61,762 nucleotides of DNA from a virus (Duplodnaviria > Caudoviricetes): IMG/VR virus record IMGVR_UViG_3300020182_000034, positions 1 to 61,762 of that record; one strand, written 5' to 3'. Shown piece after piece: positions 28,949-59,753 of the stretch (its first letter is position 1; every line of letters begins with the position of its first letter). A program made the position numbers and the translations under genes. The notes beneath the pieces were generated by a model. It searched no databases and was not told the origin of the DNA. It saw only the letters and a program-made list of their open reading frames with translations.

Positions 28949-28949
28949 A

Positions 28950-30451: not shown

Positions 30452-30457
30452 AATAAG

Positions 30458-35854: not shown

Positions 35855-35862
35855 ACATAAAT

Positions 35863-41800: not shown

Positions 41801-44682
41801 TCACATTGGCAGAAGATATACTGAGTGTTTACGCAGTACAAGATGGCTCTGATGTTATTACAGCGATATTAAGTAATGAAGCGCATGCTTTAACAAGAGA
41901 TAGTAATGGGGTTGTTAATTATTCCGGAAGTGGAACTAAGATACAAGTATTTCAGGGTGCGGTAGCACTAGCTTACGAAGGTAATCCTGGCAACAGCAAG
42001 TTCGAAGTTTCCGTATCGGCGACTGATATTTCCGCAAATCAAGACGCAAGCGACAAAAGCCTGTTTAATGCTGCGTCAGCACTAACCACTGACAGCAAGA
42101 GCGCAAAAATAGAGTTCACAATAACCGGAAAAAATTCAGAAGGAGTAAGCTTTTCAATAGTTAAAGATCAGACATTTTCAGTTTCCGATCAGGGGGCCAG
42201 TGGCTCTAGTGGGTCCACCCCAGTTTACCGAGGTGTTTGGAAGAGCGATGAACAATATTACGGCCCAACAGCCAATTCTAAAAGAGCGGATATAGTATAT
42301 AGAGATCAGGAGAGTAAGTACTTTATAGCTCTTAAGGATCACCTTTCCAGTCCAGACTTTATTTACGACAAAGGCGCTGGTAATTGGACAACATTTGGCA
42401 CAGAGTTCGAAAGTGTTGCGACTAAATTGTTACTAGCTGAGGACGCAATTATAACTCAAAGTTTAACGATGGGATCTGCAGACCCATCAAACCCTAACGC
42501 AGGAACTGGGGGAGTTATAAAAACGGTAGGAAAAGAATTTGGAAATGGGGTCACGGGATTCTTCTTTGGGAACGAAGGATCAAGCCCACAGTTTGACGTA
42601 GGGGGAAGCAGTTCTTATATTAGATTTAATTCTGAGGAGGATAGAGTTGAGATTAAAGGATCGTTGACTGTTAATAGTGTTGATTACGGGGCAGGATTAA
42701 GCCGCGAATCTACAACTGGCCCTGACGCTTCATTTATTGGTGGTGGGTACGAAAATAAAATAACAGGGTCACAGGTGGGCTCAGCTGGACTCGCCTCTTC
42801 AATAATTGGCGGAGCAAAAAACGAAATCAGCGGAAGATTTTCTGTTGTTTGTGGAGGTTTTGAGAATATGGTCGGGGACAATTTTTCTGCAATCGTTGCT
42901 GGATATAATAATGAAATGCCAAATCTTGAGGTTGACAATCAAGGAGCTAACTTTATCGGAGCAGGAGTGGGCAATACAGTTGACGGAGGAACCTCTCAAT
43001 CCATAATAAATGGAAGCAATAATGTTATTTCTCAAACTGGACTATGGAATAAAAGCACGCCACTGTCAGACCCTCAGCAGGGTTGGCTGTCTCCAGGTTT
43101 TTTAGGAGAGTTTAGTGGTTACGGATTGCTCAGTAGACATAATGTTAGCGCTAATTTTATACAAGAAAGGCCAGGTTGGGTCGAAAATTCTTGGTGGCCA
43201 TCATATCAGCAAGAAGATTGGGGCGATTCTTCGCTTGGGGAAGAAATTTTCTTTGGCACGTTCCGAGGCATAAACAAATCTTCGTGGGTTTACTCCGTGG
43301 ATTTCGGTTGGAGTTATTTTGCAGATAGGGATCAAGAGGTATACGACGATTCACATTATCAAGTCTATAATAATTTGTATGGTTATGCATACCCCAGCAT
43401 AGATGGCATGTGGGTTCACATGCAAGGTTTCAATACCGCTCATATAGGTTGGTATTTTTGGTTCAAGAGCGAAGATGTCGCCCTCAAGTCTTACCCAGGG
43501 CAAGACAAGGTCATACGATTGTCTCGCCTAATGGCAGATGGTACTTACTTGGATTATTTTTTAAGAAAAAATGCAACTTCTGGGCGCATCGAGTTGACCG
43601 CAGGCGGCCCCAACCCCTGGGTTGATGCGATCGACTATTCGACTGGCGCCACTTTTACCGGAACAGACACTGACGGCGACGGTATAGATGACGGCGTTGA
43701 TACAGACAACACAGACGGACCACTTGCAGATTCAGATGGAGATGGAGTAATTAATCAGAACGATAATTTTCCAAACAATCCAAACCGCGCAAGCGGAACG
43801 GACACTGACGGCGACGGTATAGATGACGAATTTGATACAGACAACACAGACGGACCACTTGCAGATTCAGATGGAGACGGAGTGATTAATCAAAACGATA
43901 ATTTTCCAAACAATCCAAACCGCGCAAGCGGAACGGACACTGACGGCGACGGTATAGATGACGAATTTGAGATTTTTACCCCAGCAAGTAGAACGGAGCT
44001 TGAAGGCGCGGTGAACGAGTGGGTTGCAGATGAAGCATCTGCGACAATAACGTATGGAGATATTAATACGTGGAACGTAAGTAATATTACAAGTATGTGG
44101 GCGCTTTTTATGAGCAAGGTTGATTTCAATTCAGACATAAGTAATTGGGATGTAAGTAATGTAACAACAATGAGTTACATGTTCTCAAACGCAAGAGCGT
44201 TTAATCAAAACATAAGCTCTTGGAACACATCTTCGGTCATAAGTATGTACTCTATGTTTCAGGATGCATATGCATTTAATCAAAATATTGGCGGCTGGAA
44301 CATTAGCAATGTTGAGAATATAGGCGGCATGTTTCATCAAGCAACCTCTTTTGATCAAGACATAAGCTCTTGGAACACATCTAAGGTTACAGATATGAGC
44401 TGGACATTTAAGGGTGCCGAATCTTTTGATCAAAACATTGGTAATTGGAACATTAGTAGTGGCCCAAGTATGAATGAAATGTTTGCACAGGTAACCCTAA
44501 GCGTAGCAAATTACGATGCGATATTAAATGGATTTAAAACTTCAGTTTCCCAGGGAGCAGGTAGTTCTTATGTATTCTTTGCCGGGGGCTCGTCGCAATA
44601 TTCAAGCGCGGGTCAGGCAGCAAGGACCGCTCTTCGAGTCACTTATAATTGGAATATAACGGACGGTGGGCTACAGGCCTAG
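35863..44682 (+). CDS. Giant central fibre/host-specificity protein (gpJ C-terminal-like) with FN3-like, CBM-like, TSP3 and DUF285/BspA-like repeats
   Basis: VRVFAVNSVGIRS, FFWVRPVDFAGNKGP, HIENAAITNAKIHNLTADKI; DTDGDGIDD repeats; FNQNISSWNTSxVxxM repeats. Confidence 0.8.
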   Translation: MATTILGVKFKINDLSANYELIGTSDNYSFSYNLGKGADLVEEGGSNEYSKSVDLYGNYGLFNVRVFAVNSVGIRSQFIQENISISAPEFDGTFSFSNISISNNTEIEGLVLNSPTREDNSLIVSSEYRGRSFLLNWEISPPPGHPKEGESVSSEMISDPFFGHFEIKIQNGDPSAEVLTLNNSEPFKIYLKTDDVDFELANYSQFSLGINEDIFNDISFDRNFDIEVKCFDSLGGSSTGLMVAFNPKPVLSNFLHSFSSSLSSFSWTSESLDLKDVLVKCIAVDSSHELSDKSDLVASYEHIESLNSAPLYTSINGQLYNAGDKVLYSDENVYEALQSHTTTQLTSPNNTIYWLNIGPRVAVDFSEQFTSSKNSFKKYQLWGFSYYFSFQPFDAYGEGDIFNLTKNGLQLQDSGEELMPTTSEVEIQDLQFRERGSDLVFGWRIVDQDGQDVDLDQYKYALSSTEVPQSLGISLSLFDEDSQQPLYTFPAGQNSKTKYLDSSNSIAELNNLSSASVFNTFEYTREINNSIYLDGGFPANAAEFDSELVYSPDQLSSLVFIQGGTDNYLYKSITQNSATNPYARPLYTSWSSNEDFYSSKPGVSADIVEFNGSLYTILQDVGPSSPFSLGIFNENNSYSVGDLVVHPSQYLEVFDPSLPYRRGELVMSQGSAFECLITQTEGNAVNPYSSETFWEKKLFVVDVHCAVFEMVHDASADQFGETPGSSNSAWQAIDPENSPQHFHLFAAKYSLDISEWSSFTYFAYGQLVVFKNDIWVCIQAHNQNQLPVDSKVPDESESFWSQNDLSTSLDIFTENQVGDLAFYNNSLYKCISDNPTGAPIRAEQSTDRESLSNYQDCQWLPFWEQNDDYGPVFGHIGIPEKGKRDVVASVSLLNNFGEILNSKSVVATNPPPKILPQGFSVDSTSMASRIKFNFNYDQGFQEKTTKVNLYRSSVQDFDITGSDKFPLEHIGEDSTFVKSVLGAGDATFGDNVTEIFDEPPLHINLEGIEEATGYYYKILPFDDFGSGELFRVNPSNNGGLDKIIVYPKNFHSQNPTAPIGEIPKAKQPNLGPDGGIILYESIPGPVQNLTGDTAFVNYFLNWDIPGSEKDENNNFIKKIPNDVDYYEVWESTGRYISYSLDGGSTSLLLEEANNLNGYRRILGDLESYGSVPVEEIDIAESIVDARNIFDVDARSLSLEATHKGEVNDRRFFWVRPVDFAGNKGPFVGSSSGGDYVEGLELTLGQAKTTDIADFEQNITKTFPNTVALVPNDPFKNQSPDSSSISWEGHYLYNNGTGYYISAGSTDDKFVYFTGSSLELTTNQKEQELKLGQAGGGALDDSKNNPLRNVVFTGDYNSVNYHPAGQGEGTDNELPAVVDDSDFIIARNANGVASPMWHAFANALIGSAHIENAAITNAKIHNLTADKIRSAEIKGQDIQIGLSGSTPDGQIRSAGFEGLADTGKGFVVSGDGSFVFAADDGRLYFDDGELVLEGKLRQVDGKEYTFIDLNASPSSFFYNEMSDGTYDPDHSEDDCIISANFQNSSIDATEVRFKVSAPGGYEFIKYSDHTAGKYDISGFTYDPGYNFTNGEPKVAKAKFEVTGFDKMIKAFDDQLTTIIVSASGEKTSYEKSIPINFIADGAAAIYAELSVDQQVYKYNYDGIFADDNKNLNLSSSVFNVSDVGVISYTYSTGKSLSSLEEVVSNGDNCEIIDFHNDGLGSYENTPFVAQLEVEDADGILLASDFVSVYGNMPGKDSYTVYLTNENHTYPATEDGAVTTTELANVGTEIKFSRGIEEYSFSENGADLTFSTGVISSSDGGVEVSIDRTNPGSPIIRISEYPVGSNEGYLTIPIYDNGYPNQSVSFEKVYTYSKATEGVDARKVDLTADQQVVTYNSEGTSLTSPITFITLTAASKNTKGSSVEYKFTKGVGFLGSLKDVSGGDYDGDWIASNEVHYYPPTSRAGSFNSDTIKVEIREVEGITLAEDILSVYAVQDGSDVITAILSNEAHALTRDSNGVVNYSGSGTKIQVFQGAVALAYEGNPGNSKFEVSVSATDISANQDASDKSLFNAASALTTDSKSAKIEFTITGKNSEGVSFSIVKDQTFSVSDQGASGSSGSTPVYRGVWKSDEQYYGPTANSKRADIVYRDQESKYFIALKDHLSSPDFIYDKGAGNWTTFGTEFESVATKLLLAEDAIITQSLTMGSADPSNPNAGTGGVIKTVGKEFGNGVTGFFFGNEGSSPQFDVGGSSSYIRFNSEEDRVEIKGSLTVNSVDYGAGLSRESTTGPDASFIGGGYENKITGSQVGSAGLASSIIGGAKNEISGRFSVVCGGFENMVGDNFSAIVAGYNNEMPNLEVDNQGANFIGAGVGNTVDGGTSQSIINGSNNVISQTGLWNKSTPLSDPQQGWLSPGFLGEFSGYGLLSRHNVSANFIQERPGWVENSWWPSYQQEDWGDSSLGEEIFFGTFRGINKSSWVYSVDFGWSYFADRDQEVYDDSHYQVYNNLYGYAYPSIDGMWVHMQGFNTAHIGWYFWFKSEDVALKSYPGQDKVIRLSRLMADGTYLDYFLRKNATSGRIELTAGGPNPWVDAIDYSTGATFTGTDTDGDGIDDGVDTDNTDGPLADSDGDGVINQNDNFPNNPNRASGTDTDGDGIDDEFDTDNTDGPLADSDGDGVINQNDNFPNNPNRASGTDTDGDGIDDEFEIFTPASRTELEGAVNEWVADEASATITYGDINTWNVSNITSMWALFMSKVDFNSDISNWDVSNVTTMSYMFSNARAFNQNISSWNTSSVISMYSMFQDAYAFNQNIGGWNISNVENIGGMFHQATSFDQDISSWNTSKVTDMSWTFKGAESFDQNIGNWNISSGPSMNEMFAQVTLSVANYDAILNGFKTSVSQGAGSSYVFFAGGSSQYSSAGQAARTALRVTYNWNITDGGLQA
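43660..43970 (+). repeat. 135-bp tandem repeat (about 2.3 copies) encoding thrombospondin type-3-like Asp-rich repeats
   Basis: Units start at 43660, 43795 and 43930 and are nearly identical. Confidence 0.9.
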
Positions 44683-44701: not shown

Positions 44702-45679
44702 ATGATTAACCAACCCTCATCAACACAAGGTTTCAGTGATTATCATGATGATAATAATTTTATTGGCGCTGGCGTCGACAACCAAATAATAAACAGCCAA
44801 AGATGCTCGATCTTGCAGGGCTCTTCAAACTTTATTAGCGGCAAATATAATTGCCACGCAATAGGTGACTACATGGGCACCGACTTTATAACGTTTCAGG
44901 CTGGGGAGTATATTGAATTACAAGACAATTCTTTTAATATTGGTTGCTATAATGGAACTTATTCCTGGGGGCCGATGTTTGCAAAAAGAGGTTTGTCTGT
45001 CACTCACGACGCAGTTTTTGATCGAGAGGTTAGAATTGGTAGCACTAGAAATAGAAATCTCCAGCCGACAGGTTTTTACCCTAACGATTCTTGGATTACC
45101 GGCGCAGCAGGACAAAACGGTGAGCATCACTTCGGAAATGAAGTTGGCTACTTGGACTTTGATGCACAGCTAGACTCAAGCACAATGACTGCAGAATGGG
45201 GGGCAAGAATTCACAATGGATTTATTGTTCACGATAAACCTCTAGGAGAGCCCGACGCAATCGTCTTGAGAGATCAAACCTCTGACATTTTCATAACTTC
45301 AGACCCAAATAAAACAGACAAAATCTCAAACCTCAACGTAGAAGGGGATGTGGTAGCGTTCGGATCATCAGATGAAAGACTTAAGGATAATATATCCTTA
45401 ATAAAGGACCCTCTTGGTAAGGTTTTACTTCTTGACGCTATAGAGTTTGACTGGAATTCTAAACAGCAAGCTTATCGCGGTCACGACTTAGGGTTAATAG
45501 CTCAGCAAGTAGAAGCTGTAGCTCCAGAACTAGTAATCACTAGGTGCGACGGGTACAAAGCAATCAAGTACGAGAAAATAAATTCTTTAGTTGTTGGGGC
45601 TATCAAGCAACAACAAGAGATGATTGATTCCATGAAAGAAGAACTCAAAGAATTAAAAGATAAAATCAATCATTCATAA
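44702..45679 (+). CDS. Tail fibre/spike protein with C-terminal intramolecular chaperone (peptidase S74-like)
   Basis: SSDERLKDNI..FDW..GLIAQQVEAVAPELV..YEKI..AIKQ followed by a coiled coil. Confidence 0.85.
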   Translation: MINQPSSTQGFSDYHDDNNFIGAGVDNQIINSQRCSILQGSSNFISGKYNCHAIGDYMGTDFITFQAGEYIELQDNSFNIGCYNGTYSWGPMFAKRGLSVTHDAVFDREVRIGSTRNRNLQPTGFYPNDSWITGAAGQNGEHHFGNEVGYLDFDAQLDSSTMTAEWGARIHNGFIVHDKPLGEPDAIVLRDQTSDIFITSDPNKTDKISNLNVEGDVVAFGSSDERLKDNISLIKDPLGKVLLLDAIEFDWNSKQQAYRGHDLGLIAQQVEAVAPELVITRCDGYKAIKYEKINSLVVGAIKQQQEMIDSMKEELKELKDKINHS

Positions 45680-46448
45680 CCTTCATTAGAACTCTTGCTT
45701 GAGTCGCCGGTATATCAGAGAAGTCATTCCAGTCTTTTACTGAATCGTTTTTATATTTTCCATCCTTCCACCAATCCCTAAGTATAACTTTAAACTCTTC
45801 AAAGCTAGAACAATTCAATTTGTCTTTAGCTAGGTTCTCTATCATTGAGTGTGGAGTAAGTGTTGGTTGGGAGTTTGATTGACCTCCGAACGATTTAGTG
45901 TTTGACTTGTCTATTTCGTCGTCTCCAACAATATGCACATTAAGAAAGTTTCTTACGCAACGAACAAAAGCTCTATTGCAGGCTATTGTTTCTAGAAATT
46001 TAGTAGCAAAACTGCTTGTATTATCTAATGTTGCGTTTGCTATATCCTGAAAAACCACTTCTCCATTTCCTGTTTCATAATTAGGCAGAAACTTAACCCT
46101 ACAGGTAACAGCTACATGATCAAACCCACACTTAACAACGTCGTATGATACATCTGAAAATCCTCGCAGTTTTGCAAGCTCTTTGATTCCGCTTAATTTT
46201 ATTAATAATTGATGGTCACCTAGCCCAACTATACTTCTTGGTAAATCTTTCTTTCTTAGGTCGAACCACGATCTATTTGGGAATAGGTGCTCGTCCTTTA
46301 TCATAGACCTCCAGTTGACAGATCCATCTTCATCGAATATATAATCTACGTTGTCTAGCAGTCCAAATTCATTTCTTCTAAAAAGTCCAGGACCTTCTTT
46401 ATAGTTTTTGATGTACTCTGTTTCAGTTTGTTTTGTCTTTGTTACCAT
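45666..46448 (-). CDS. Putative ssDNA-annealing recombinase (Rad52/Sak/RecT-like)
   Basis: GIKELAKLRGF..VAVTCRV..ETIACNRAFVRCVRNFLNV..DDEI resembles the SSAP core; inference only. Confidence 0.4.
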   Translation of the reverse strand: MVTKTKQTETEYIKNYKEGPGLFRRNEFGLLDNVDYIFDEDGSVNWRSMIKDEHLFPNRSWFDLRKKDLPRSIVGLGDHQLLIKLSGIKELAKLRGFSDVSYDVVKCGFDHVAVTCRVKFLPNYETGNGEVVFQDIANATLDNTSSFATKFLETIACNRAFVRCVRNFLNVHIVGDDEIDKSNTKSFGGQSNSQPTLTPHSMIENLAKDKLNCSSFEEFKVILRDWWKDGKYKNDSVKDWNDFSDIPATQARVLMKVMND

Positions 46449-47607
46449 GATTGTTTTCGTTGTAAATTCTTAATATGTTTAAGTCTTCCCAGAACTCCGG
46501 GCAGTCAATGATTTTATTGTGATTTCCTTGTTTGTCATATTTCCAGGCAGCTTTACTGTTGTAAATTTGACCTCCAGCTATTATCTTCATTGAGCATTTA
46601 TAACGAGAATTATCGCACACTTTGTTCGAGTTGTCAAGATCTTTTTTTGTTTTTGTTTTTATAAACATGATTGGCCAGTCAAAAAATTTAATTCTTAATT
46701 CATTTATGTTTTCTTCATTTTTGCACAAAAGATTTAATTTAATTCCTAATTTTTCTATTGCTGTAAAATATTTAGGATTGTCTTTTTCTGATACATAGTA
46801 GTTTATTAAATTGATATTATCTTTTATTACTCGCAAATACTTTAATTCCATAGGTTGATCTAGGAATATATTACATTTTCTATCGTACGCCCACTTTGCG
46901 ATATTGGGTTGATCGAAGCATTCGTGCCCCCAAATGTTAACAGGTTGCCCTTTGGCGAACGTCTTTGGCATGATATGGTTTGGTACAACTGATATGGATG
47001 GAGTTTTGTATTCAACCCCCATGTGAAGTGTTTCGACGCTATCTATGTTATGTTTGATATTTAACAAATTAAGTACCGACCTTGCAATAGTCTCAGGTTT
47101 AATAAAATTAATTGTCTTCGGGGACTCCTTGCTTGAAAATGAAGGCTTTAGCCCTCCCCTGTCCGACTCTATTAAAATTTGATTGTTTTTATCTCCCCAG
47201 TATGGACCACAACATTCTTTGTAGAGAACACTGTATAGGCAGACTAGTTTTTTGTTAAATCCTGATGCCACGTGCGTAGTGAATGAGTCGTTGCCAAAAT
47301 GAAGTAGTGATTTTTCAATGACGTAAGCAGTTTGCCTTATGGAGGTGTTGCCATTATAGTGATTACATTCTTTGACGGCTTTATCTTCTTTAGCTCCAAC
47401 CTGTACAACTTCTATCCCTTCCTCTTTTAAGTAGGGGCTAATCAACGTCATTACATCTGGAAAATAATCATAATTCTTTGCCTCCATTCCGCTGCTCGCA
47501 TGCAGGGTTATGTATTTTTTAAAAGGTATCGGAAAGAATGAAGTTTCTATATGGGGCTTGCCTATTTTAACCCCACAAGATAGCGCGTATTGTTCTATTA
47601 AGTGCAT
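46423..47607 (-). CDS. Glycosyltransferase family 9-like protein (C-terminal lobe plus an unknown domain)
   Basis: YITLHASS..KNY, VVQVG, TSIRQTAYVI..HFGNDSFTTHVASGFNKKLVCLY. Confidence 0.7.
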   Translation of the reverse strand: MHLIEQYALSCGVKIGKPHIETSFFPIPFKKYITLHASSGMEAKNYDYFPDVMTLISPYLKEEGIEVVQVGAKEDKAVKECNHYNGNTSIRQTAYVIEKSLLHFGNDSFTTHVASGFNKKLVCLYSVLYKECCGPYWGDKNNQILIESDRGGLKPSFSSKESPKTINFIKPETIARSVLNLLNIKHNIDSVETLHMGVEYKTPSISVVPNHIMPKTFAKGQPVNIWGHECFDQPNIAKWAYDRKCNIFLDQPMELKYLRVIKDNINLINYYVSEKDNPKYFTAIEKLGIKLNLLCKNEENINELRIKFFDWPIMFIKTKTKKDLDNSNKVCDNSRYKCSMKIIAGGQIYNSKAAWKYDKQGNHNKIIDCPEFWEDLNILRIYNENNHGNKDKTN

Positions 47608-49502
47608 ATTTCGAATTGTATTTTATCTTTTCCATTATGCATATAGTTAAGTATTCTTTGCGTTCCAATAAAAGGCAAGAACGCGACTTCAAAGAATCCA
47701 TCGTGATCTCTCTGCCCCTCCATCACCGTTAAGTTGTCCAAGCTTTTTGTGTAAGGTATAACTTTATGAATAAAAGGGTTGCCGTCGAGAATGTCGAAGT
47801 ATTCCGGCTTGGTGGCGAAATATATATTGTAATCTGGGTATGTTAACTTTATGTTCTCCAGTAGGGATGTGCATAAATATATATCTCCAATGCTCTGGGG
47901 CATTGATATTAACAACCTCTTTCCTTCGTCGTCTTTATCTAATATCTCCGAGAAATCTACTTTGTTATTTTTTTTATTATTTTCCGTTGCCACTTGCTTG
48001 AAGTACTTCAATACATCTTTTCTTGGCGAGCTTTCAGATAGTTTTTTCATCCAATGCTTATAGCCGTCGTCCGACTCGTCCAGCTCTACGTCCAATATGT
48101 TTTTGTATATATCCTTGATCCAGTTTGAGTCACTTTTAATTTCTGGAGGTTCATAGTCAGGGTTCTTTGGCTTAACCTTAAAGTCAAAATCCCAGTCAAC
48201 AACCTCTGCCGAGTCAATAATGCCTTCAAGCTTTGAGCCTATAGCTTCTATTCCGTAATTATTAACAACAAATTCTCTAGCCTTCTTCCCTAGGCTTTCT
48301 TTTTTATTAGAGCTCATCCTCAAGACTTTTCTTAATTGGTTAGCTATGCTTTCTGGGTCGGTGCTTGCTTTTATAAATTGCGTTCCAGGCTCTCTATACT
48401 CTGTCCAACTAAGCGGCAATCCTCCAGACTCTTCCGAGCAGGAATCCTCCCCACAGCTATAGTTGGTTGCAAGGGTCACCAGCTCTGTTAGTTTGGCTTC
48501 TTGTATGGGTATCTCTTGTCCACCACTAGTAAAGGGGTGGCAGTATACGTCCATTAAGTTATAGATTTGATTTAATTGAGTTTCGCTTGCTCCGGTTTTA
48601 GTGTCTGGGGTTTTTTGTGATTTCTCGGACCCACAAAAAGGACAGTCCTGGTCTCCCTCTCTAAAGCTCTTTACCTCAAAACTTTTGCATTCCTTGCATA
48701 CATAAGTTGTTAAAACTCGAGATGGGTCAATGCTTTTTTCCTTTATTAATCGAGGTATATCCCAACCTTCCCCCCAGTTTGTGTGGAGTAGCAATTTCGC
48801 GGAAACTTCTGGATTTTTGTCGCAAAAAATTTTAAACCCTTCCAGCAAGTTTGGTACGCTTTTCCTTAATTGGTTTCTAAATACAAAGCCTATAACAAAG
48901 TCATCTTCCAGTTTGAAGTATTGCCTCATCTTGGTCCGCTCATCAACAGGAAGTTTGAAAAAGTTTTTTGAGTCTATTGCTCCATGTAGGGTTTGGACAT
49001 GCTCGTGCCCAATTTCGTTTAAGGATTTTTGGGCGAAAGTGGCCCAGGTGAAGTAGTTCTTAATTTTTGAGGCGTTCTTTATGGCTTCTGGCAGTATAGG
49101 TAAACTGTCAAGCGTTGTCCACACCATGCAGTTAATCTTGTTCCACCATTTTTTTTCAGTAAATCCAGAGAAAGCCCATATATCCTCTATGCCTATATAC
49201 ACATCAGGCTTTTCCCTTTCTATTATTTTGTCTATAGTGTGGGATCCGTAAGAGGCTGCTCTAGACAGTCCTGGATCTTGGCTAATTTTTTGTAAAAACG
49301 CAGCATCGTTAGGTAGTGAACCCTCACATTTCCACGGCAAAGTTTCTAGAGATGGGTCTCCCCATTTTTTGCCATTTGCGAATTCAACTAAATCGTACTT
49401 GCCTGTTTTCTGCAAGTAAAGAAGTATGTTCTTCGCGTTTTTGCCAAAGCCCGTTAAGGCCTTGCAGTGGTTGCTATGTATTAATACTTTTTTTTTGCTC
49501 AT
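47598..49502 (-). CDS. GT4-like glycosyltransferase fused to a zinc ribbon, DUF4214-like segment and GT9 N-terminal lobe
   Basis: TGFG, RNQLRK, IYNLMDVYCHPFTSGGQEIPIQEA; CKEC..CPFC; SIGDIYL..YPD..I.FAT..ILDGNPFIHKVI. Confidence 0.75.
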   Translation of the reverse strand: MSKKKVLIHSNHCKALTGFGKNAKNILLYLQKTGKYDLVEFANGKKWGDPSLETLPWKCEGSLPNDAAFLQKISQDPGLSRAASYGSHTIDKIIEREKPDVYIGIEDIWAFSGFTEKKWWNKINCMVWTTLDSLPILPEAIKNASKIKNYFTWATFAQKSLNEIGHEHVQTLHGAIDSKNFFKLPVDERTKMRQYFKLEDDFVIGFVFRNQLRKSVPNLLEGFKIFCDKNPEVSAKLLLHTNWGEGWDIPRLIKEKSIDPSRVLTTYVCKECKSFEVKSFREGDQDCPFCGSEKSQKTPDTKTGASETQLNQIYNLMDVYCHPFTSGGQEIPIQEAKLTELVTLATNYSCGEDSCSEESGGLPLSWTEYREPGTQFIKASTDPESIANQLRKVLRMSSNKKESLGKKAREFVVNNYGIEAIGSKLEGIIDSAEVVDWDFDFKVKPKNPDYEPPEIKSDSNWIKDIYKNILDVELDESDDGYKHWMKKLSESSPRKDVLKYFKQVATENNKKNNKVDFSEILDKDDEGKRLLISMPQSIGDIYLCTSLLENIKLTYPDYNIYFATKPEYFDILDGNPFIHKVIPYTKSLDNLTVMEGQRDHDGFFEVAFLPFIGTQRILNYMHNGKDKIQFEICT

Positions 49503-50068
49503 TAAAATGGAGCGGAATCGCTGTCAGAGCTTTCGGGTCGAACCTCTTCTTTTTGCTCGTTTTTGTATTTTTGTATATTTTTAATCTCCTCTTTCCTTCT
49601 GTGCTCGTACAGTTTGGACAAGTAAAATCTAAAGAATTCATCAAGATTTTCAACCTCTCCGGGTTCAAGGGGCACTCTAAATGTTTGGCTACCATTCCTC
49701 GTAAATGTTATCCCGAAAGCTGGCAATATGGTACTTTCTCCCTTTTGGTTTTTTACAGATTTATCCCACGGTACGAATTTAATTGAAGTCTTGTTCTCTT
49801 CAAAACTGTGAAAGGCTGAGTACTCATACCTCTTTCGTAGGGCGCTTAATATCCCACCAATCTCAAATTCGTTGAATTTTAAATTTATATTTTTTTCGGG
49901 GTTTTCTTTATTGCCAGAGAAGCTTCCAGATCTTTTTTTATCATCCCAGTTGTATTGCTGGATTGCGCTTGCATAAACGACAGGCTCTTTGTTTCTGTTG
50001 ACACCTATCTTGAAATTAAATGCGCACCCTGCGTTTTTGCTGTTTGGTTTATATAATGTAATACTCAT
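49502..50068 (-). CDS. Whirly/PC4-like ssDNA-binding protein with an acidic PF tail
   Basis: Start moved to ATG 50068; LYK..A, QYNW, LKFNEFEIGGIL, AFH and VPLEPGE pattern; ends SSDSDSAPF. Confidence 0.5.
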   Translation of the reverse strand: MSITLYKPNSKNAGCAFNFKIGVNRNKEPVVYASAIQQYNWDDKKRSGSFSGNKENPEKNINLKFNEFEIGGILSALRKRYEYSAFHSFEENKTSIKFVPWDKSVKNQKGESTILPAFGITFTRNGSQTFRVPLEPGEVENLDEFFRFYLSKLYEHRRKEEIKNIQKYKNEQKEEVRPESSDSDSAPF

Positions 50069-50073
50069 AACAG

Positions 50074-50101
50074 ATAATATGAGTAAAGATAAATTTATCA
50101 A
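50074..50101 (-). promoter_or_regulatory. Sigma70-like promoter TTGATA-N16-TATTAT
   Basis: -35 at 50101-50096, -10 at 50079-50074, ATG 5 nt downstream. Confidence 0.5.
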
Positions 50102-50949
50102 CTATTAATTAAGTCTATATGGTTGCACCAATCTTCTTCGTTGTACAGTGCGTCGTACCTCCTGTAGCTAGATGTCCATATATGCCTCGGCAGGTTGCGT
50201 ATTCTTATTATGTCAAAATGTTTTTTCATCAAGCTTGACGATGGCTCTTGGGATGAGCTGTCGAATTTTTTTCTTTGTTTATCAAAATAGGTTTCAATGA
50301 TGGCGTTACACAGCAGTTGCTCTGGAAAACCAAACTGGGTTTTTCCCTCGCATAATGAATAAGCTCTCTCAAAGGCGTCCTTCATTCTAATTCTTGATCC
50401 AGCAACAATGTGGTCAGACGGGTGGAATTTATGCTGCTTGTCGAATCTAAAATATATATTGGAGGTTATTATCTTGAACCAGTCTTTTTTTGAGTTTCTT
50501 ATTAGTAGGTTTACCAAAGGATCCAGCACTGGAAAGCTCTCATCGGATCTTAATTTAATGCAAAAACTCCCAGAAGCCTCATTGATTCCTGATAGAGTTG
50601 TGGCGTGTTGGTATATCCACGGAGCCTGCTTCCCAGACCTCTTTCTAAACTTTGGGAGGTCTGAATATTTATTTACCACCAACTTGATTTTGCCTTTGTA
50701 CAGATCAAGTTTGCCGGTGTCGTCGTCGTCCCAACAGCTCACTATAACCTCGCCGTACTTCAGATAATCTGGTATTGTCTTTATTGACCTTTCGTTTAGG
50801 GGGCCTTGTATTATTATAGACACGCTTTTTTCGTAGTCACCTATTGACCCTAATAGGTTGCTGTACAGATTGAACGCGAACCTGTCCCATGGGCTAACAT
50901 GGGATTCGTGATTTAAGTAATTGTTAAATAATTCTTTATCATTGTTCAT
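50098..50949 (-). CDS. WavE-like lipopolysaccharide synthesis protein
   Basis: SIIIQGP, EVIVSCW, Q..TTLSG, IKLRSD, FHPSDHIVAG, FPEQ. Confidence 0.7.
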   Translation of the reverse strand: MNNDKELFNNYLNHESHVSPWDRFAFNLYSNLLGSIGDYEKSVSIIIQGPLNERSIKTIPDYLKYGEVIVSCWDDDDTGKLDLYKGKIKLVVNKYSDLPKFRKRSGKQAPWIYQHATTLSGINEASGSFCIKLRSDESFPVLDPLVNLLIRNSKKDWFKIITSNIYFRFDKQHKFHPSDHIVAGSRIRMKDAFERAYSLCEGKTQFGFPEQLLCNAIIETYFDKQRKKFDSSSQEPSSSLMKKHFDIIRIRNLPRHIWTSSYRRYDALYNEEDWCNHIDLINS

Positions 50950-51368
50950 TTTAAATAGTCAGAGCATAGGCCAAAGCATATAGGCCCCGAGTATTCCCTG
51001 GCGTCCTCTACCACTAATACGCTTTTGTTGCAAACCCTTTTTCCTGGATATGTCCATATGAAATTTTTAGAGGTTAACGTATAATCATCGTTTTCGTGCC
51101 AGAAATAATTTAAGACTTTAAACTCTGATAGCAAGTCGATCGCTTCAAGATTTTTGCAATGAATCCACAACTTTCTGAAATTATTAAGCAAAAAGCTTAG
51201 GTCTATTTTATATTGGGGCTCGTCGTGACCTAGCCATATCTTCTTGTCGGCCCAAATATCTATCTCAACGTCAAAGCCTAGGTTTAGAGCTTGAGCTATC
51301 TGGTCGGGACTATTTTCTCTATCTTTGTCTGGGCCAAATACATTACCCCTATGAGCTACAAATATCAT
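50946..51368 (-). CDS. Short glycerophosphodiester phosphodiesterase-like protein
   Basis: VAHRGN..EN..GFDVEIDIW..LGHD..WIHCKN. Confidence 0.75.
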   Translation of the reverse strand: MIFVAHRGNVFGPDKDRENSPDQIAQALNLGFDVEIDIWADKKIWLGHDEPQYKIDLSFLLNNFRKLWIHCKNLEAIDLLSEFKVLNYFWHENDDYTLTSKNFIWTYPGKRVCNKSVLVVEDAREYSGPICFGLCSDYLK

Positions 51369-52725
51369 GTTTTAAAAAGGTGTCTAGGTCTTCCGGGGTT
51401 CCGATGCCCCACATTTTTTCTATATGAAAGGTCTTAACTCTCGCTCCGTCAAGAAGGGCTTCGTTGTATACCGGACAAACGTAAAATTCATTATTAACTC
51501 TTATGTTTTTGTTGATCATTCTTTCCGCATACCTAACATAATCTTCTCCCTTTTTCCAAAAATAAATTCCCACCGTAGCGTGGTTGCTAATAGGCTTCTT
51601 TTCTGCAACTTCCACAACAAAACCTTCTTCGTTTAGTTTTGCGTAACTCCACTTCGGATGAGTGGAATTGAAGGTTAAAATCGAGGCATCTATATCGTCC
51701 GCAGATGATGCATACATATATTGATTGCTGTCCCACTCTACATACTGATCTGAGTTTGCTAAAACAAGAGGTTCGTTATTGTTAATGAGCTCTTTGGCTA
51801 GTAGAGTTGTACATGCCGCCCCCTCAGTTATGCCTTCCACTTGCACTATTTTGCAGTTTGGAGCTATTAAATTCAGAGTGTGCTTTAGGGAGTATTTTTC
51901 GTAGTGTTCTTTTTGCACTATGAATATATGCTGAGCATCTATATTTAAATTCTCCACGACCCTCTGGATCATTGGTTTTCCATTAACATCTATCAAAGGT
52001 TTTGGGAAAGTGTAACCAGCTTGCTCGAATCTAGACCCAGCTCCAGCCATAGGTATTAATACGTTCATTTTGCCTCCTTGCCATTTTGGTGAAATTTCAG
52101 ACTCTTTCTCTGCATTTATTATAGTACTACAAATCTTATCATATGTCAAGTCAGCGCAATCTTTTATCGCACAAAGAAAGCCGCCACTCCTCAACGCGCC
52201 CTTTCTGCCTATGTGGGAGTCCTCGATAATAACCGTTTCGTCAGGATTGGCGCCAGCCTTTATCATGCACTTCATATACACCTCCGCGTTAGGCTTTGGT
52301 TTGCTAACGTCCTCATTGGAATACAAAAAGTCTATATACTCAAAGAAGCCTTTTCTTATTAGCATTAATTTCGACGTCTCTCTTATGGAGTTTGTTGCGC
52401 ATGCAATCTTGTAACCCTTGTTTCTTAACTTTATTAATATAGATTGTATTCTTTTATCTTTTTTATAGGCATTTATCTCTCCCAGTGTTTTCTCCTGCTT
52501 GAGTTGCCAAACTTGATTGTGGCAGTCTTGCGGCAAATTCTTTTCCTTGGTGAGTTTTTTTAGTTTTTGAGTTGTTGTTAATGCATCATATTTGCAAAGA
52601 TGTTCTTCTTTACTTATTGTATATTGATCTCCTATTTCAGAAAGAGCTTTATTGAGTGCAATATAATGTAATTCGCGCGACTCAACTAATACTCCATCTA
52701 AATCAAATATAATTAATTTAATCAT
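51349..52725 (-). CDS. HAD-family phosphatase fused to a sugar nucleotidyltransferase-like domain
   Basis: FDLDGVLV, KPKP, IEDS; then IPMAGAGSRF..PKPLIDVNGKPMI..GIGTPEDL; start moved to 52725 (ATGA overlap). Confidence 0.85.
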   Translation of the reverse strand: MIKLIIFDLDGVLVESRELHYIALNKALSEIGDQYTISKEEHLCKYDALTTTQKLKKLTKEKNLPQDCHNQVWQLKQEKTLGEINAYKKDKRIQSILIKLRNKGYKIACATNSIRETSKLMLIRKGFFEYIDFLYSNEDVSKPKPNAEVYMKCMIKAGANPDETVIIEDSHIGRKGALRSGGFLCAIKDCADLTYDKICSTIINAEKESEISPKWQGGKMNVLIPMAGAGSRFEQAGYTFPKPLIDVNGKPMIQRVVENLNIDAQHIFIVQKEHYEKYSLKHTLNLIAPNCKIVQVEGITEGAACTTLLAKELINNNEPLVLANSDQYVEWDSNQYMYASSADDIDASILTFNSTHPKWSYAKLNEEGFVVEVAEKKPISNHATVGIYFWKKGEDYVRYAERMINKNIRVNNEFYVCPVYNEALLDGARVKTFHIEKMWGIGTPEDLDTFLKHDICSS

Positions 52726-53414
52726 ATGTGATATTGCCTCCAATGTTTAATTCCATGAGTGTTGGATATGTTTAAATATTGTTCAGTTTTCTTTTTTAAA
52801 TTGTAACAGCTTAAATATTTAAATGACAGGGAATTTTTTGATTGATATATTTTATTGTCCGAAGGAAAGAGTCCGTCTGTAGCTGCAACGTTAAATTCTC
52901 TTGATATATAGTTTTGGAATGCGTGTGGGCCTACTATTTGTAATCCCGGGTATATGTTTTTTCCTTTGATTAAGCGAGATACAGAAAGTATTCTTTTTGA
53001 TATAAAATTAATAGCATTAAGGAAAAGTTTACTTTCTTTTTTGCCAGAAATAAGCATGTAGCTTATATTCTTATGTCCAAGGTCAAAGAAAATATTTTCA
53101 TTGCAATCTAATTCTTTTAAGTTTATTTTTTTTGATAAATTAAAAGGTTCCATGTCAAAATCAAACCATATTCCTCCGTTTTTATAAATGTATGAAATTC
53201 TAAAAAAATCAGCTATAGCTGTTCCATTGGTTAAGCAATCATAACTTACCTTTGCTGTGGGGAAGTTTTTGAAAAAGTTGTATACATCTTTATCTGAAAA
53301 GTATTTTACTTCAAAACCATTATTTAATCTTTTCCATTTATCGATAGTTTCTTCGCAGTTTTTGCAGGTTTTTATATCTGGCTTAAACGATGTAAATAAA
53401 ACTTTTGGTATCAT
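52722..53414 (-). CDS. Glycosyltransferase family 32-like (DxD, OCH1-like)
   Basis: MIPK.., ADFFR..IYKNGGIWFDFD, GP. Confidence 0.8.
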   Translation of the reverse strand: MIPKVLFTSFKPDIKTCKNCEETIDKWKRLNNGFEVKYFSDKDVYNFFKNFPTAKVSYDCLTNGTAIADFFRISYIYKNGGIWFDFDMEPFNLSKKINLKELDCNENIFFDLGHKNISYMLISGKKESKLFLNAINFISKRILSVSRLIKGKNIYPGLQIVGPHAFQNYISREFNVAATDGLFPSDNKIYQSKNSLSFKYLSCYNLKKKTEQYLNISNTHGIKHWRQYHI

Positions 53415-54226
53415 AAATTTTGTGGTTGAGATTGTATAAATTCGTTAAATTTTAAACTTTCACTACAAAATTTGTGGTCTTGTAAATATTTAGGGAGCTT
53501 ATTTTTTTCATGACGCTTAAGTGATTTTATCCACTTATTTAAGTTTTGGTTTCCTCTGATAATTAAATTATCTTTTATGTAGTGTGGGAATTTTTTTTTG
53601 TTGTCTATGGTTCTATGTTCTATTTTAAATTTTTGACGAGAAATATTTTTGCTGTAAGATGGGTGGTATATATAAATATCTTTTGGTGTTAGTGGGTTTC
53701 TGAAAATATTACCAGGGTAATCTATATGATTGCAGTGGATTCTAGATGTTTTTACTTTACTTAAATTGAGATTTGATAATTTAAAGAATCTGCCCATAGG
53801 CTTCCATTCTTCGTAAAATTCTAAACCGTTCCAAAATAATTTGTGGGTTGGGTTTACTGAGGTAACTCCTGATTTTAGGATATTAATTAAATCGTCTATT
53901 TCTTTTTCATGAAAAATTTCATCTCCATCTCCGTTGATGTACCAGTCTGGGTTGTATTGTTTTGCTTTTTCTAGGGTAAAATGCCTGTGGTCTACTTGCG
54001 CTTTTCCGTTAAAATGATAAAGTTTGATTTTATTAAGAGGATCTGGTATAGATTTTATATAATCGATGGTATTATCCGAGCTTCTTGCGCTTTTACCGGT
54101 CTTGATGCCGCTTTCCCAACAACCTTCTGTTATGATAATTTTTGAGCAAAAAGAATAAAGACTTAATACGGATTCTCTTATAAAGTCTTCTTCGTTATAG
54201 CATTGTATTCCAGCTACAATTTTCAT
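53411..54226 (-). CDS. Glycosyltransferase family 2-like
   Basis: YNEEDFI, SSDNT, DWYINGDGDE. Confidence 0.75.
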   Translation of the reverse strand: MKIVAGIQCYNEEDFIRESVLSLYSFCSKIIITEGCWESGIKTGKSARSSDNTIDYIKSIPDPLNKIKLYHFNGKAQVDHRHFTLEKAKQYNPDWYINGDGDEIFHEKEIDDLINILKSGVTSVNPTHKLFWNGLEFYEEWKPMGRFFKLSNLNLSKVKTSRIHCNHIDYPGNIFRNPLTPKDIYIYHPSYSKNISRQKFKIEHRTIDNKKKFPHYIKDNLIIRGNQNLNKWIKSLKRHEKNKLPKYLQDHKFCSESLKFNEFIQSQPQNL

Positions 54227-54759
54227 TTTTTCACTAAAGCTGCGATCATTTGACCTCCTTGCGTTTCTTTAATGACTTTGTATTTCTCAAGAATGGATCT
54301 ATAATGTTTTCTGCCTGGGTGCCAGTCATGCATAAAGATAATGCAGTCATTATTTATAAAATCGTACATATATCTAGCGCACTGAGGCCTAGCTCTTCCG
54401 TCTATTAATATTTTTGTGAATTTTTTATTAATTTTCGAACCTGTTTCTATGTATTCTTTGTAGGCTTTGTATATTTTAGTTGTATAGAGTTGGTTCCATT
54501 TTGTTGCGTGTTTTTGATCTGGATCTTCTGGTCTTACGACTGGAACTGTATGCATTGTGACATTTTTTGGCGCAATTTCTTTAACTGAATTAGCCCACTT
54601 AAGGTCTGATTCGATACTATAGTATTCTTTTACATATTTAGGGAAAAACATAGTGCTACCTCCGCAGCCGTATTCCAGCATTACGTCATCTTTATTTAAA
54701 AAACTTAATAAAAGATTAATTTCCCCTCGAGACATCCATGGTTGATTTGGTACATTCAT
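54223..54759 (-). CDS. Class I SAM-dependent methyltransferase (glycan O-methyltransferase-like)
   Basis: MLEYGCGGST, YSIESD..W, ILIDGRAR, IFMHD. Confidence 0.75.
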   Translation of the reverse strand: MNVPNQPWMSRGEINLLLSFLNKDDVMLEYGCGGSTMFFPKYVKEYYSIESDLKWANSVKEIAPKNVTMHTVPVVRPEDPDQKHATKWNQLYTTKIYKAYKEYIETGSKINKKFTKILIDGRARPQCARYMYDFINNDCIIFMHDWHPGRKHYRSILEKYKVIKETQGGQMIAALVKK

Positions 54760-55658
54760 TTTAAGTATTTGTTTATTGCGTGGGTTCTGATTTCATTAAA
54801 GGTTTCATCGTTCCATATAAAGTCATCTTGATAAGAGGTGTATACATCTTGGTCGCACCAACCTGCTTCCCTGAAATTATTAGGTCTACTGTGTTCTCCA
54901 ACTTCCCCTATGTATTCAAAATTATTTGTGAATGTCGAAACTTTAATCATACCTCTTGAAATTAAAGCTGATGATGTACATGAATCTTGACTTGATACTA
55001 TTTTATTTGGATCAATGCCAAATTGTGACATATATTCAAGTATTTTTAAATGCGGTCGAGCTCTATATTCTTGAGGCAATAAAGCCCAAAAACCTTCCAT
55101 GATGTCTAGGATTTTTTGGTAGGAACTTCTTCTCATTGCATAAGCCCACATGTGATCCATTAAAATTAATTTATCTTTATTTTTTTTTTGGTCTTTTAAT
55201 GTAGTTTTTGAATCTAGGTTGTCTATGTAATTGATATATGAATATCTGTGGCTTTTTTTTGATCTATGGTGTTCGCCGAAACAATTGATCATTGCAACTC
55301 TTTCATCATCTTTAAATAATTCAATAAGTCTGTCTATTTGCTGTATGTAGTGAGGCTGTAATACGGAATCATCTTCAATTAATATCAAGAATTCATTCTT
55401 CTTGAAAACCATTTCCCTTGAGAGTTTCATGATTCCTGCTACCCCAAGATTCACTTTTGGTATAAAGTTTTTAGAATGAGGTATTATTTCCTTTGATAGA
55501 TTAATACATTTTTGCACGGCAGGAATTTCTTGTTGGAATCTTGGCGCATCAATAAAACAATAAACTTCCCTGTCCCAGCATTGTGGAGATAGAGACTCTA
55601 AAACTTTTTTGAAATAATCAGGTCTATTATAAGCCGTTAATACTATCGGGGTTTTCAT
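54756..55658 (-). CDS. GT-A fold glycosyltransferase (GT2-like)
   Basis: PIVLTAYNRPDY, FIDAP, NLG, LILIEDD. Confidence 0.75.
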   Translation of the reverse strand: MKTPIVLTAYNRPDYFKKVLESLSPQCWDREVYCFIDAPRFQQEIPAVQKCINLSKEIIPHSKNFIPKVNLGVAGIMKLSREMVFKKNEFLILIEDDSVLQPHYIQQIDRLIELFKDDERVAMINCFGEHHRSKKSHRYSYINYIDNLDSKTTLKDQKKNKDKLILMDHMWAYAMRRSSYQKILDIMEGFWALLPQEYRARPHLKILEYMSQFGIDPNKIVSSQDSCTSSALISRGMIKVSTFTNNFEYIGEVGEHSRPNNFREAGWCDQDVYTSYQDDFIWNDETFNEIRTHAINKYLK

Positions 55659-56442
55659 TGTAGATTGTAGAGTTGTGCCCTTGGTTTTTCCATTTTTTCC
55701 CGCCCTTGCATAATATGGTTTTTATATTTCCAAAAGAATTTGTTCCTGTCAATTGTTTGTACTTGCAGTTTTTTCTGTTCAAATGAACGGTGAGTACAGA
55801 TTCTGGTACTTGAGACATATACTCTGGATAACCTTCGTTTTGCATGAAAGTTAAAGCTTCGCTTACTCCGTTAATACTTAGCATATATTTCTCCATTTCT
55901 CTTGAGTGGCCGATTGCGAATTGGTCGTTTATTTGATTCGGTAGGGAAGCCTTGTCGTAAATAAAGCTGAACGAGAATATCTTTCGCATCTCTTGTTCGT
56001 GGTTGTATATATTTGAGCTCTCAAAAAAAGGCAGTCTAATACATCTTGATCGAATGCAATCTTGTATTTCGTGCTTCTTTATTCTTTCTAAAACTTGAAT
56101 GTCCGGTCTTAGCCTGATGATTATGTCGTACTTAAGTTTTTTTAGGGATTCGTACTGTGTCATTACCTGGTGAGCTGATCTCATGTTTGCTAACATAGGG
56201 ATTAGTCCAGGACTAGGTTTTACCTGAATAGATGGATCTATGTCCAGCAAACCTGGGGTACACGGATCTAGAGAAGTCCAAGATTTGGGTTTGTAATAGG
56301 AGTAGAAGGATTGATAATCCTCGTCGCTCCATGTTGAGAAAAATATATCTGGATTTAGGTCCCTAATTAAGTTGTTGACTATAGAATCCCTGGATGACTC
56401 CCAGTCTCCAAGTTTACCGCTAAAGCATAGTGCTACTTTCAT
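55627..56442 (-). CDS. Glycan-biosynthesis-associated protein (KVALCFSG..RxRPD family)
   Basis: MKVALCFSG, DIFFSTW, YDIIIRLRPD, INDQFAIG, PES. Confidence 0.55.
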   Translation of the reverse strand: MKVALCFSGKLGDWESSRDSIVNNLIRDLNPDIFFSTWSDEDYQSFYSYYKPKSWTSLDPCTPGLLDIDPSIQVKPSPGLIPMLANMRSAHQVMTQYESLKKLKYDIIIRLRPDIQVLERIKKHEIQDCIRSRCIRLPFFESSNIYNHEQEMRKIFSFSFIYDKASLPNQINDQFAIGHSREMEKYMLSINGVSEALTFMQNEGYPEYMSQVPESVLTVHLNRKNCKYKQLTGTNSFGNIKTILCKGGKKWKNQGHNSTIYNENPDSINGL

Positions 56443-57869: not shown

Positions 57870-57875
57870 GTGAGA

Positions 57876-58217
57876 ATGAAATTTTTAGATCTAAGTGATG
57901 GTAAGTATTTTTTAGTAAAATGCTCTGACTGGTCTGCTGTTATTCAGGCAGACAACGAAACAGATGCGTGCACTAATTCTTTAAGAAATATGATTGACAA
58001 ACACGGGGGAGAATTAAAACTATCTTCTGTAATAATTTCTCAAGAACTAAACCCCGACATCTTCGAGCAGCTTAATCGGGCAAGGGAGAATGAGGATTTA
58101 GATTACGACGAGGATCCGTATGATGAATATGTATCTTACCATTCGGTAGCTATGATGCTTGCAAACGCAGGAATGCACGACCTATCTTCCAACGTAAAGA
58201 CAATATTCGGAGCATAA
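57876..58217 (+). CDS. Hypothetical protein
   Basis: Start moved from GTG 57870 to ATG 57876 because the GTG abuts the -10 box. Confidence 0.6.
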   Translation: MKFLDLSDGKYFLVKCSDWSAVIQADNETDACTNSLRNMIDKHGGELKLSSVIISQELNPDIFEQLNRARENEDLDYDEDPYDEYVSYHSVAMMLANAGMHDLSSNVKTIFGA

Positions 58218-58218
58218 T

Positions 58219-59748: not shown

Positions 59749-59753
59749 TAATT

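Follow-up and report, generated by a model that had tools for sequence, protein, structure and literature searches.

Whirly-like proteins with SSB-type C-terminal tips in uncultured marine phages: predicted fold, gene context and candidate roles

The Whirly proteins (StWHY1/PBF-2 p24, StWHY2 and AtWHY1-3; Pfam family PF08536) have been called plant-specific or plant-unique (PMC9070903; bioRxiv 10.64898/2026.10.24.761589). On the sheets of its tetramer, WHY2 not only binds DNA but also melts it (PMC7549692); Whirly proteins stimulate RecA strand exchange, and Whirly, SSB and RecA cooperate in plant organelles (both bioRxiv 10.64898/2026.10.24.761589). In higher plants, the KGKAAL motif serves in the binding of single-stranded DNA (ssDNA) and in 24-mer assembly. 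The conserved C-terminal pair Glu271-Trp272 of StWHY1 touches a lysine within the Whirly domain and weakens the binding of ssDNA, which increases when the pair is mutated (PMC9070903). Here we describe a Whirly-like gene carried by a 61,762-nt stretch of phage DNA (IMG/VR virus record IMGVR_UViG_3300020182_000034, analysed over its full length and referred to below as the window). Its 188-aa product is, very probably, a real but distant Whirly homologue lying just outside the boundary of the Pfam family, and it ends in an acidic tip of the kind found on bacterial SSB.

Whirly-fold or PC4-like proteins in phages (ChmC and the T5 protein) and database entries labelled 'Whirly' are already known. 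The chimalliviruses encode ChmC (PhiPA3 gp61/PhiKZ gp67), a homotetramer with a Whirly fold whose ligand is single-stranded nucleic acid (PMC11077065). In contrast to the family described here, which keeps sequence similarity to plant Whirly and a short SSB-like tip, ChmC is built on a beta-beta-beta-alpha repeat, was reported to lack similarity in sequence to known proteins, prefers RNA, and forms condensates in the service of the phage nucleus through a disordered C-terminal region of 50-70 residues that is N/G-rich and S/D/E-rich (PMC11077065). The PC4-like set (the T5 PC4-like protein, YdbC, SP_0782, Pur-alpha and MRP1/2) is mostly 'type II', with one repeat per chain and dimerising, whereas the window protein is 'type I', with two repeats per chain, as in Whirly. 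The T5 PC4 homologue has been implicated in recombination-dependent replication (PMC7549692), and Shedu defence nucleases contain sPC4/Whirly sensor domains (bioRxiv 10.1101/2023.08.10.552793). What is new is a large, unannotated phage family that joins a Whirly domain to an SSB tip and coexists with a canonical SSB; in the open full-text literature searched (subscription journals excepted), no description was found of a phage Whirly homologue with an SSB-type tail or of a phage origin of Whirly. A family described as plant-specific would thus have a large phage branch as well, and an abundant gene family of marine phages could now be named.

Relationship to plant Whirly proteins

The ATG start of the 188-aa frame is common to all 46 aligned relatives (MS.S.YKPN), and an alternative TTG start could give a 199-aa form. 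An earlier note had proposed a Whirly resemblance based on a series of short motifs, all of which were found in the translation in the order given: LYK (residues 5-7), QYNW (38-41), LKFNEFEIGGILS (63-75), AFH (85-87), IKFVP (96-100), FGITF (118-122) and VPLEPGE (132-138), with SSDSDSAPF at the C-terminus. The AlphaFold 2 (AF2) model built on 46 relatives has a predicted local distance difference test score (pLDDT) of 91.8 and a predicted template modelling score (pTM) of 0.81. It contains two strand-rich units, each closed by one helix: strands across residues 2-65, a helix at 67-79, strands across 83-134 and a second helix at 136-175, giving two beta-sheet/helix repeats. Judged by this model and by Foldseek, the chain is predicted to hold the two four-stranded antiparallel sheets, each with its helix, that define the Whirly fold.

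When the model was compared with the PDB using Foldseek, 16 matches were obtained at E ≤ 0.001, and the ten top matches listed were all plant Whirly structures, the best of them 3r9y (E-value: 4.4e-5, TM-scores 0.52/0.60); plant WHY structures therefore rank first in the structural comparison, in agreement with the earlier proposal. The next match listed after Whirly was MRP1/2 at rank 17 (E-value: 1.2e-3), and Pur-alpha scored 2.5e-3, so that these PC4-like proteins score 30 to 100 times more weakly than Whirly does. Among viral structures (BFVD), the top match was an uncultured-phage protein labelled 'Whirly transcription factor' (A0A6J5NR37, E-value: 3.1e-5, TM-scores 0.53/0.69), which differs from the window protein in being shorter (141 aa) and whose name is an automatic database label only; no paper on proteins labelled in this way turned up in the literature searched. 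A related cluster of 75 members in a protein-language-model atlas is 63% viral, with PF08536 assigned to 13% of its members.

The sequence relationship emerges at the level of the family. A profile made from 76 diverse members (A2) was searched against PDB sequences at E ≤ 10 and returned seven, six of which are plant Whirly proteins and the seventh an unrelated chain at E 2.1. The E-values for the Whirly chains were 1.5e-4 for 4kop (AtWHY2), 1.7e-4 for 3n1h/3r9y (StWHY2), 7e-4 for 1l3a (PBF-2), 0.024 for 4koo (AtWHY1) and 0.026 for 4koq (AtWHY3). The similarity extends over residues 55-156, and in the alignment the phage motifs E.G..IS, FH and ..GE....L face TEVGSLIS, FFH and VPVTKAEFAV of the plant proteins, the shared ..AE/GE element included. 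PF08536 itself was matched by 8 of the 76 relatives at E ≤ 0.1 (best E-value: 5e-5). Two of the ten most distant members matched it in single scans, with 22.2 and 18.7 bits, both under the Pfam gathering score of 23 bits, and one of these two matches runs from position 23 to position 134 of the 136-position profile. In both the A2 profile and Foldseek, the likeness to Whirly goes beyond what chance would give.

The motif likeness originally proposed stands for the second half of the domain, where the A2 alignment reproduces it, and is more tentative for two equivalences in the first half. Because HMMER begins its alignment at about residue 55 and sets the plant YDW opposite phage residues 55-57, QYNW (38-41) can be the counterpart of QYDW only if a loop of about 16 residues is inserted; such a loop after W41 may be one of the differences between the phage protein and plant Whirly. 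The equivalence of LYK with YKGKAAL has as its basis the length of the structural alignment (170-185 columns), not a residue-level alignment. The phage protein further differs from its plant counterparts in its score below the Pfam cut-off, in its single long C-terminal helix with an SSB-like ...PF tail and in being phage-encoded with no transit peptide. Lysine, aromatic and histidine positions that are conserved in the family are K7, W41, F50, K64 and H87.

Plant Whirly proteins are homotetramers built on helices, and the same is predicted for the phage protein. Three four-copy models scored 0.91, 0.91 and 0.92, compared with 0.02 for the best of three controls; the runs have at least 85% of their contacts in common, and the pLDDT of the partner chains is at least 84. 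In the modelled interface, helix 67-84 packs on residues 135-161 of the neighbouring chain, and the invariant residues E67, E69, G71, P136, G137 and E138 lie within it. These invariant residues of the predicted interface make up motifs in common with plant Whirly.

The family is large. At 90% clustering, 191 relatives were found at E ≤ 0.001 (from 240 candidates), and cluster representatives at 50% identity numbered 473 at the same threshold, 202 of them at E ≤ 1e-10. The family was confirmed in 322 IMG/VR stretches from 381 candidates, and DNA nearly identical to the window occurs in marine metagenomes from 13 coded studies. A tblastn search with the 188-aa protein gave no match in 50,697 deposited phage genomes. 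Against PHROGs, the 188-aa protein had a single weak match (phrog_8750, E-value: 0.025) and the 76 relatives had four one-member matches without annotation (E-values: 0.003-0.006). Neither PHROGs nor the records of cultured phages include the family. In a prokaryote collection with one genome for each of 185,579 species, only 6 of 113 candidates were confirmed. All six are contigs of metagenome-assembled genomes (MAGs) whose assignments fall in unrelated phyla (Coraliomargarita, Woesebacteria, Thermodesulfobacteriota, Flavobacteriaceae, Cellvibrionales and Flavobacteriales), and one is 210,818 bp in length. Most likely they are phage DNA mis-binned into bacterial MAGs, and they provide no reliable clue to the host. 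As the six matches are read in this way, the family looks phage-borne.

The acidic tip and the canonical SSB

E. coli SSB ends in DDDIPF, a tip that recruits many partners, and T7 gp2.5 depends on its C-terminal phenylalanine. In E. coli SSB, T7 gp2.5 and T4 gp32, the tail serves both autoregulation and docking. The tail of the window protein follows the long C-terminal helix, and the pLDDT falls to 74 and then to 60 over the last two blocks, with low confidence across the last 13 or so residues; residues 176-188 are probably disordered. The ending SSDSDSAPF (pLDDT about 60) is a flexible acidic tip closing in Pro-Phe, as in SSB, and the SSB-type tail claimed for this protein is both present and recurrent in the family. 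Of 120 close relatives, 88 end in PF and six in PI or PL; the other 26 have no tail and finish with the helix. The last residue of 79 full-length distant representatives is F in 25, W in 14 and Y in one. The combination of an aromatic last residue and two or more acidic residues among the final eight was found in 67/120 close and 37/79 distant members, compared with 8/791 other ORF products from the same loci used as controls (kinship among members is ignored in these counts). The two distant members that come closest to Pfam Whirly end in DDEIPF(L) and DDGEIPF, which is nearly the canonical SSB tip.

The canonical SSB that the earlier note placed in this phage was confirmed as an OB-fold (oligonucleotide/oligosaccharide-binding) SSB by its PF00436 match (Table 1). 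Its 128-aa product ends in EEEDDFADIPF, and the gene lies 9.3 kb from the Whirly-like gene. The two proteins have in common the acidic Pro-Phe tail (SDSAPF and FADIPF), a tetrameric build that would present four tails (predicted for the Whirly-like protein) and, presumably, strand coating and partner recruitment. They differ entirely in fold (Whirly for one, OB for the other) and in the linker before the tip, which is much shorter in the Whirly-like protein. The tips also appear to vary together: SSB ending in ...[IV]PF occurs with Whirly-like [AV]PF, SSB ending in ...[MP]PF occurs with CPI, and SSB ending in ...EFEF occurs with a tail-less Whirly-like protein. Of the 80 related loci, 30 contain both genes, and the pairing was counted in these; they probably amount to about three independent lineages. 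It suggests a shared, co-evolving partner, as a hint rather than a test.

The StWHY1 C-terminus is likewise acidic and aromatic, and its Glu271-Trp272 folds onto the domain (PMC9070903). By analogy, the phage tail may be the counterpart of this autoregulatory motif, a docking tip like that of SSB, or both. We consider recruitment of partners by the tail quite conceivable, with the balance tipping slightly toward doubt.

Proposed role and competing explanations

The reading that we favour, with somewhat better than even confidence, is that the protein is a Whirly-type binder of single strands that forms tetramers, carries an SSB-like tip for autoregulation and docking, is made early and works next to the canonical SSB during replication, recombination or repair. 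Its parts differ in strength. Binding of single-stranded nucleic acid is likely in view of the fold and of the conserved K7, W41, F50, K64 and H87, and DNA rather than RNA is the more probable main ligand, if by a lesser degree of confidence. In the proposed mechanism, the gene would be transcribed from its own sigma-70-type promoter or, in relatives, jointly with the SSB module, and four copies would assemble through contacts of helix 67-84 and the first part of the long C-terminal helix. The tetramer would then bind ssDNA on its lysine- and aromatic-rich sheets, like plant WHY2. In the free state the tail would fold back on the binding surface, as the SSB tip does, while in the DNA-bound state it would be exposed as a docking peptide for replication and recombination proteins. 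The protein would in this way be an accessory single-strand-binding or recombination factor that works alongside the canonical SSB and with a bacterial-type replisome. The reported cooperation of Whirly, SSB and RecA in plant organelles forms a parallel.

Several observations weigh against this reading. First, the 188-aa protein on its own does not reveal the relationship: it had no Pfam match at E ≤ 10 (PF08536 and PF00436 included), so that the Whirly profile check suggested earlier came out negative when carried out as a hidden Markov model (HMM) scan; the PF08536 model found nothing when run over the window, NCBIfam gave no match, phmmer against the PDB gave no Whirly, and a profile of the 46 close relatives (A1) had no match in the PDB. 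(The sole phmmer match to a PDB sequence, BamA at E 0.35, was judged spurious.) KGKAAL is absent from the translation, where the first strand reads LYKPNSKNAGCAF; algal Whirly-like proteins likewise do without it (PMC9070903). Second, the Foldseek TM-scores are moderate (0.5-0.6), with a root-mean-square deviation of about 6 Å. Third, although the mark used for assemblies was reached by 20/30 proteins solved as pairs and by 1/23 solved as single chains, this calibration was made on two copies with its own alignments and not on four copies, and the tetramer score may be recall of solved Whirly tetramers, which would indicate likeness and not assembly. Fourth, the tail is dispensable in some lineages, as shown by the 26/120 close members without it, and in the window protein it carries two acidic residues only. 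Fifth, the gene lies inside, and overlaps, a glycosyltransferase (GT) operon, which is not an obvious replication context. Lastly, the Whirly-fold relatives ChmC and MRP1/2 bind RNA.

The best surviving alternative, although an unlikely one, is an RNA-binding Whirly-fold protein of the ChmC or MRP1/2 type that would act on the translation, stability or annealing of phage mRNA. ChmC binds single-stranded RNA at 58 nM compared with 184 nM for ssDNA (PMC11077065), MRP1/2 stands just behind Whirly in the fold search, and the gene is the first of an operon, its end overlapping the start codon that follows. However, the family profile matches plant Whirly and not MRP or Pur-alpha, and three features speak for DNA: the ...PF tip, the SSB-module linkage seen in distant relatives and the bacterial-type replisome. 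The long disordered C-terminal region of ChmC is also absent, the tail here being about 13 residues. The tblastn search with the 188-aa protein, read here for kinship with ChmC, had no match in the 50,697 phage records, a collection in which the presence of ChmC-bearing phages is unconfirmed.

A second alternative is that the protein is a decoy: its four tails would capture proteins of the host that dock on host SSB, helping in host takeover or weakening a defence based on the sensing of SSB or ssDNA, and DNA binding would be secondary. The tail is the most recurrent feature of the family outside the domain, a canonical SSB is already available for phage replication, and the gene has an early-type promoter. 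We regard this role as improbable: the strong conservation of K7, W41, F50, K64 and H87 on the sheets suggests a ligand-binding domain and not a mere scaffold, and the domain is kept in members that lack the tail. There is no evidence of a PADLOC-type or anti-defence nature, for which no search was made.

Comparable in probability to the decoy is a partnership with the glycosyltransferases, in which the protein would hold or melt DNA for its modification with sugars, or would regulate the operon as a transcription factor. The downstream order is nearly fixed, running from the Whirly-like gene to genes 47598 (634 aa), 46423 (GT9-like) and 45666 (260 aa). A homologue of 47598 comes next in 55/63 distinct relatives, with stop and start codons mostly overlapping (by 1 nt in 28). 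A deoxynucleoside monophosphate (dNMP) kinase and another GT-like gene are present in the neighbouring module, a variable sugar-nucleotide/GT island lies upstream, and plant PBF-2 was first described as a transcription factor. In 7/63 relatives, however, neither GT gene is present, which leaves the 260-aa gene immediately downstream of the Whirly-like gene. The GT matches are to lipopolysaccharide-type and group-1 transferases with no sign of DNA as substrate, and the literature examined contains no link between the Whirly fold and glycosylation. The earlier note was silent on the placement in the GT operon and the overlap with the next gene, as it was on existing records of phage Whirly-fold or 'Whirly'-labelled proteins.

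That the likeness to Whirly is convergent or due to chance in an unrelated small beta-rich phage protein is very improbable: direct Pfam matches are absent and identity to Whirly structures is just 12-15% (Foldseek), but independent fold and profile searches both rank Whirly first, members come within reach of the PF08536 cut-off and the aligned motifs coincide.

If ssDNA binding and partner recruitment by this family are real, then phages would possess a second, non-OB solution to the SSB problem. The family would also offer a tractable bacterial-side model of the cooperation of Whirly with RecA and SSB, and the origin of Whirly would become a question testable by phylogeny. Plant organelles acquired Twinkle and a T7-like RNA polymerase from phage. 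A doubtful but far-reaching scenario is that Whirly was not invented by plants but has its roots in an ancient group of phage or bacterial 'hub' proteins that bind single strands without an OB fold; of these, the marine-phage tetramer with its SSB-type tip would survive beside SSB, the replisome and RecA; the plant Glu-Trp pair would be a relic of the tail, and organelles would have taken Whirly from phage.

Gene neighbourhood, promoter and phage lineage

The features of the locus are collected in Table 1. For synteny analysis, ORFs were called in 80 related IMG/VR loci and matched to the window genes. The DNA-metabolism/regulator module of the window contains genes for a 115-aa ORF product, the dNMP kinase, a sigma-like protein, SSB, a GT-like protein of 351 aa and a regulator-like protein of 114 aa. 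In more distant relatives, the dNMP kinase/sigma-like/SSB/GT-like/regulator-like module lies directly upstream of the Whirly-like gene on the same strand, and a homologue of window gene 60809 adjoins the Whirly-like gene upstream in 18/80 loci. In the window, the module is inverted and 8-11 kb away.

Table 1. Positions of the Whirly-like gene, its parts and associated features in the window
Feature	Position	Strand	Basis or remark
Whirly-like coding sequence, 188 aa	49505..50068, stop codon 49502..49504	-	ORF call and translation
Whirly-type domain, residues 1-135 (predicted)	49664..50068	-	AF2, Foldseek, family profile (residues 55-156)
Long C-terminal helix, residues 136-175 (predicted)	49544..49663	-	AF2 and four-copy model
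Low-confidence tail, residues 176-188, ending SSDSDSAPF	49505..49543	-	pLDDT, tail statistics
Sigma-70-like promoter candidate TTGATA-16-TATTAT, 10/12	50074..50101	-	-10 hexamer ends 5 nt before ATG
Downstream 634-aa glycosyltransferase-like gene	47598..49502	-	ATG overlaps Whirly-like stop, TAATG
394-aa GT9/heptosyltransferase-like gene, same operon	46423..47607	-	kept in 66/75 loci with enough flank
Conserved 260-aa gene, operon end	45666..46448	-	kept in 71/75 loci with enough flank
DNA-metabolism/regulator module	57870..61153	+	family matches, synteny
Canonical OB-fold SSB, 128 aa, ending EEEDDFADIPF	59362..59748	+	PF00436, E 1.7e-25

The Whirly-like gene had also been credited with its own promoter, a claim that draws its support from relatives. 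The candidate site in the window is no better than shuffles (3 promoter-like sites found in the window alone, 3.0 expected), but it is conserved in relatives. Within 70 nt, a site matching at 10/12 or better is carried by 31/51 distinct upstream regions without a directly preceding 60809 homologue, four of them perfect at 12/12, compared with 40/552 upstream regions of other genes and 0/14 where the gene abuts a 60809 homologue; these upstream regions are not phylogenetically independent. The split between 31/51 and 0/14 implies two arrangements: either the gene comes first in a transcription unit of its own that also contains the GT genes and the 260-aa gene, or it is transcribed together with the SSB module. 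The homologues of 57386, 58764 and 60809 have motifs of this type upstream as well, which suggests one early or middle promoter class. Metatranscriptome contigs from two runs of one study overlap the gene at 49570-49985 and 49841-50086, and its neighbours also, with DNA carry-over possible; they carry no information on transcript start, strand or level.

The window is a viral contig with a completeness rating of 44%. Three relatives rated 100% complete (200-211 kb) carry Whirly-like proteins that are 53-55% identical. Each has genes for an alpha-type DNA polymerase III (about 870 aa), a RecA-like protein and a DnaB-like helicase, and DNA polymerases of families A and B are absent from all three. 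The replisome of the lineage is therefore of the bacterial type, which is the setting where SSB tips are used.

The 260-aa protein at the operon end belongs to a family of 2879 clusters at E ≤ 0.001, and its listed relatives are close and unnamed. Its AF2 model (pLDDT 84.3) has an alpha-beta-beta-beta-alpha core, for which the best Foldseek matches in the PDB were chains of human RAD52 (E-values: 0.013-0.06) and yeast Mgm101 (0.16), and its atlas neighbours were Sak (0.89) and Rad52 (0.88), both under the 0.9 line. PF04098 and PF06378 gave no match over the window, Pfam and PHROGs scans of 33 homologues gave nothing relevant, NCBIfam gave no match, a profile search against the PDB gave one irrelevant match (E-value: 0.55), and tblastn found no match in the 50,697 phage genomes. 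As HMM searches give no support, a Rad52/Sak reading draws on the Foldseek value of 0.013 and the language-model neighbours only. A single-strand annealing protein of the Rad52/Sak type is thus a weak lead, possible and well short of an even chance. If it were true, the conserved pairing of a Whirly-like protein with an annealing protein would strengthen a role in recombination.

Other observations concern the surrounding genes. The 634-aa and 394-aa ORFs overlap by 10 nt, and heptosyltransferase models align through their C-terminal half only, to residues 60-147 of the second ORF. On visual inspection, the missing N-terminal half resembles the end of the 634-aa ORF; one possibility is a GT9-type enzyme that has been split or frameshifted and is encoded as two ORFs in relatives as well. 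The variable sugar-nucleotide/GT island (50098..57389, minus strand) lies between the Whirly-like gene and the SSB module and includes WavE-like, DXD GT and GT2-like genes and a fusion of HAD (haloacid dehalogenase) and nucleotidyltransferase domains; its content varies among relatives. Within the island, the G+C content falls to 28.5% at 53000-53999, and the dNMP kinase gene is close by. Directly upstream of SSB, a 201-aa sigma-70-like protein (58764..59369, plus strand) has matches to TIGR02985 'Sig70_bacteroi1' (E-value: 4e-7, far under the cut-off) and phrog_351 (7e-5); it may direct the phage's own late transcription. No tRNA genes were found in the window. Four very large ORFs (2214, 1717, 1798 and 2939 aa) are located within 13892..44682 on the plus strand, and further ORFs with PHROG tail-fibre matches are found at the left end of the window, so that an unusually large share of this genome is given to fibre-like proteins.

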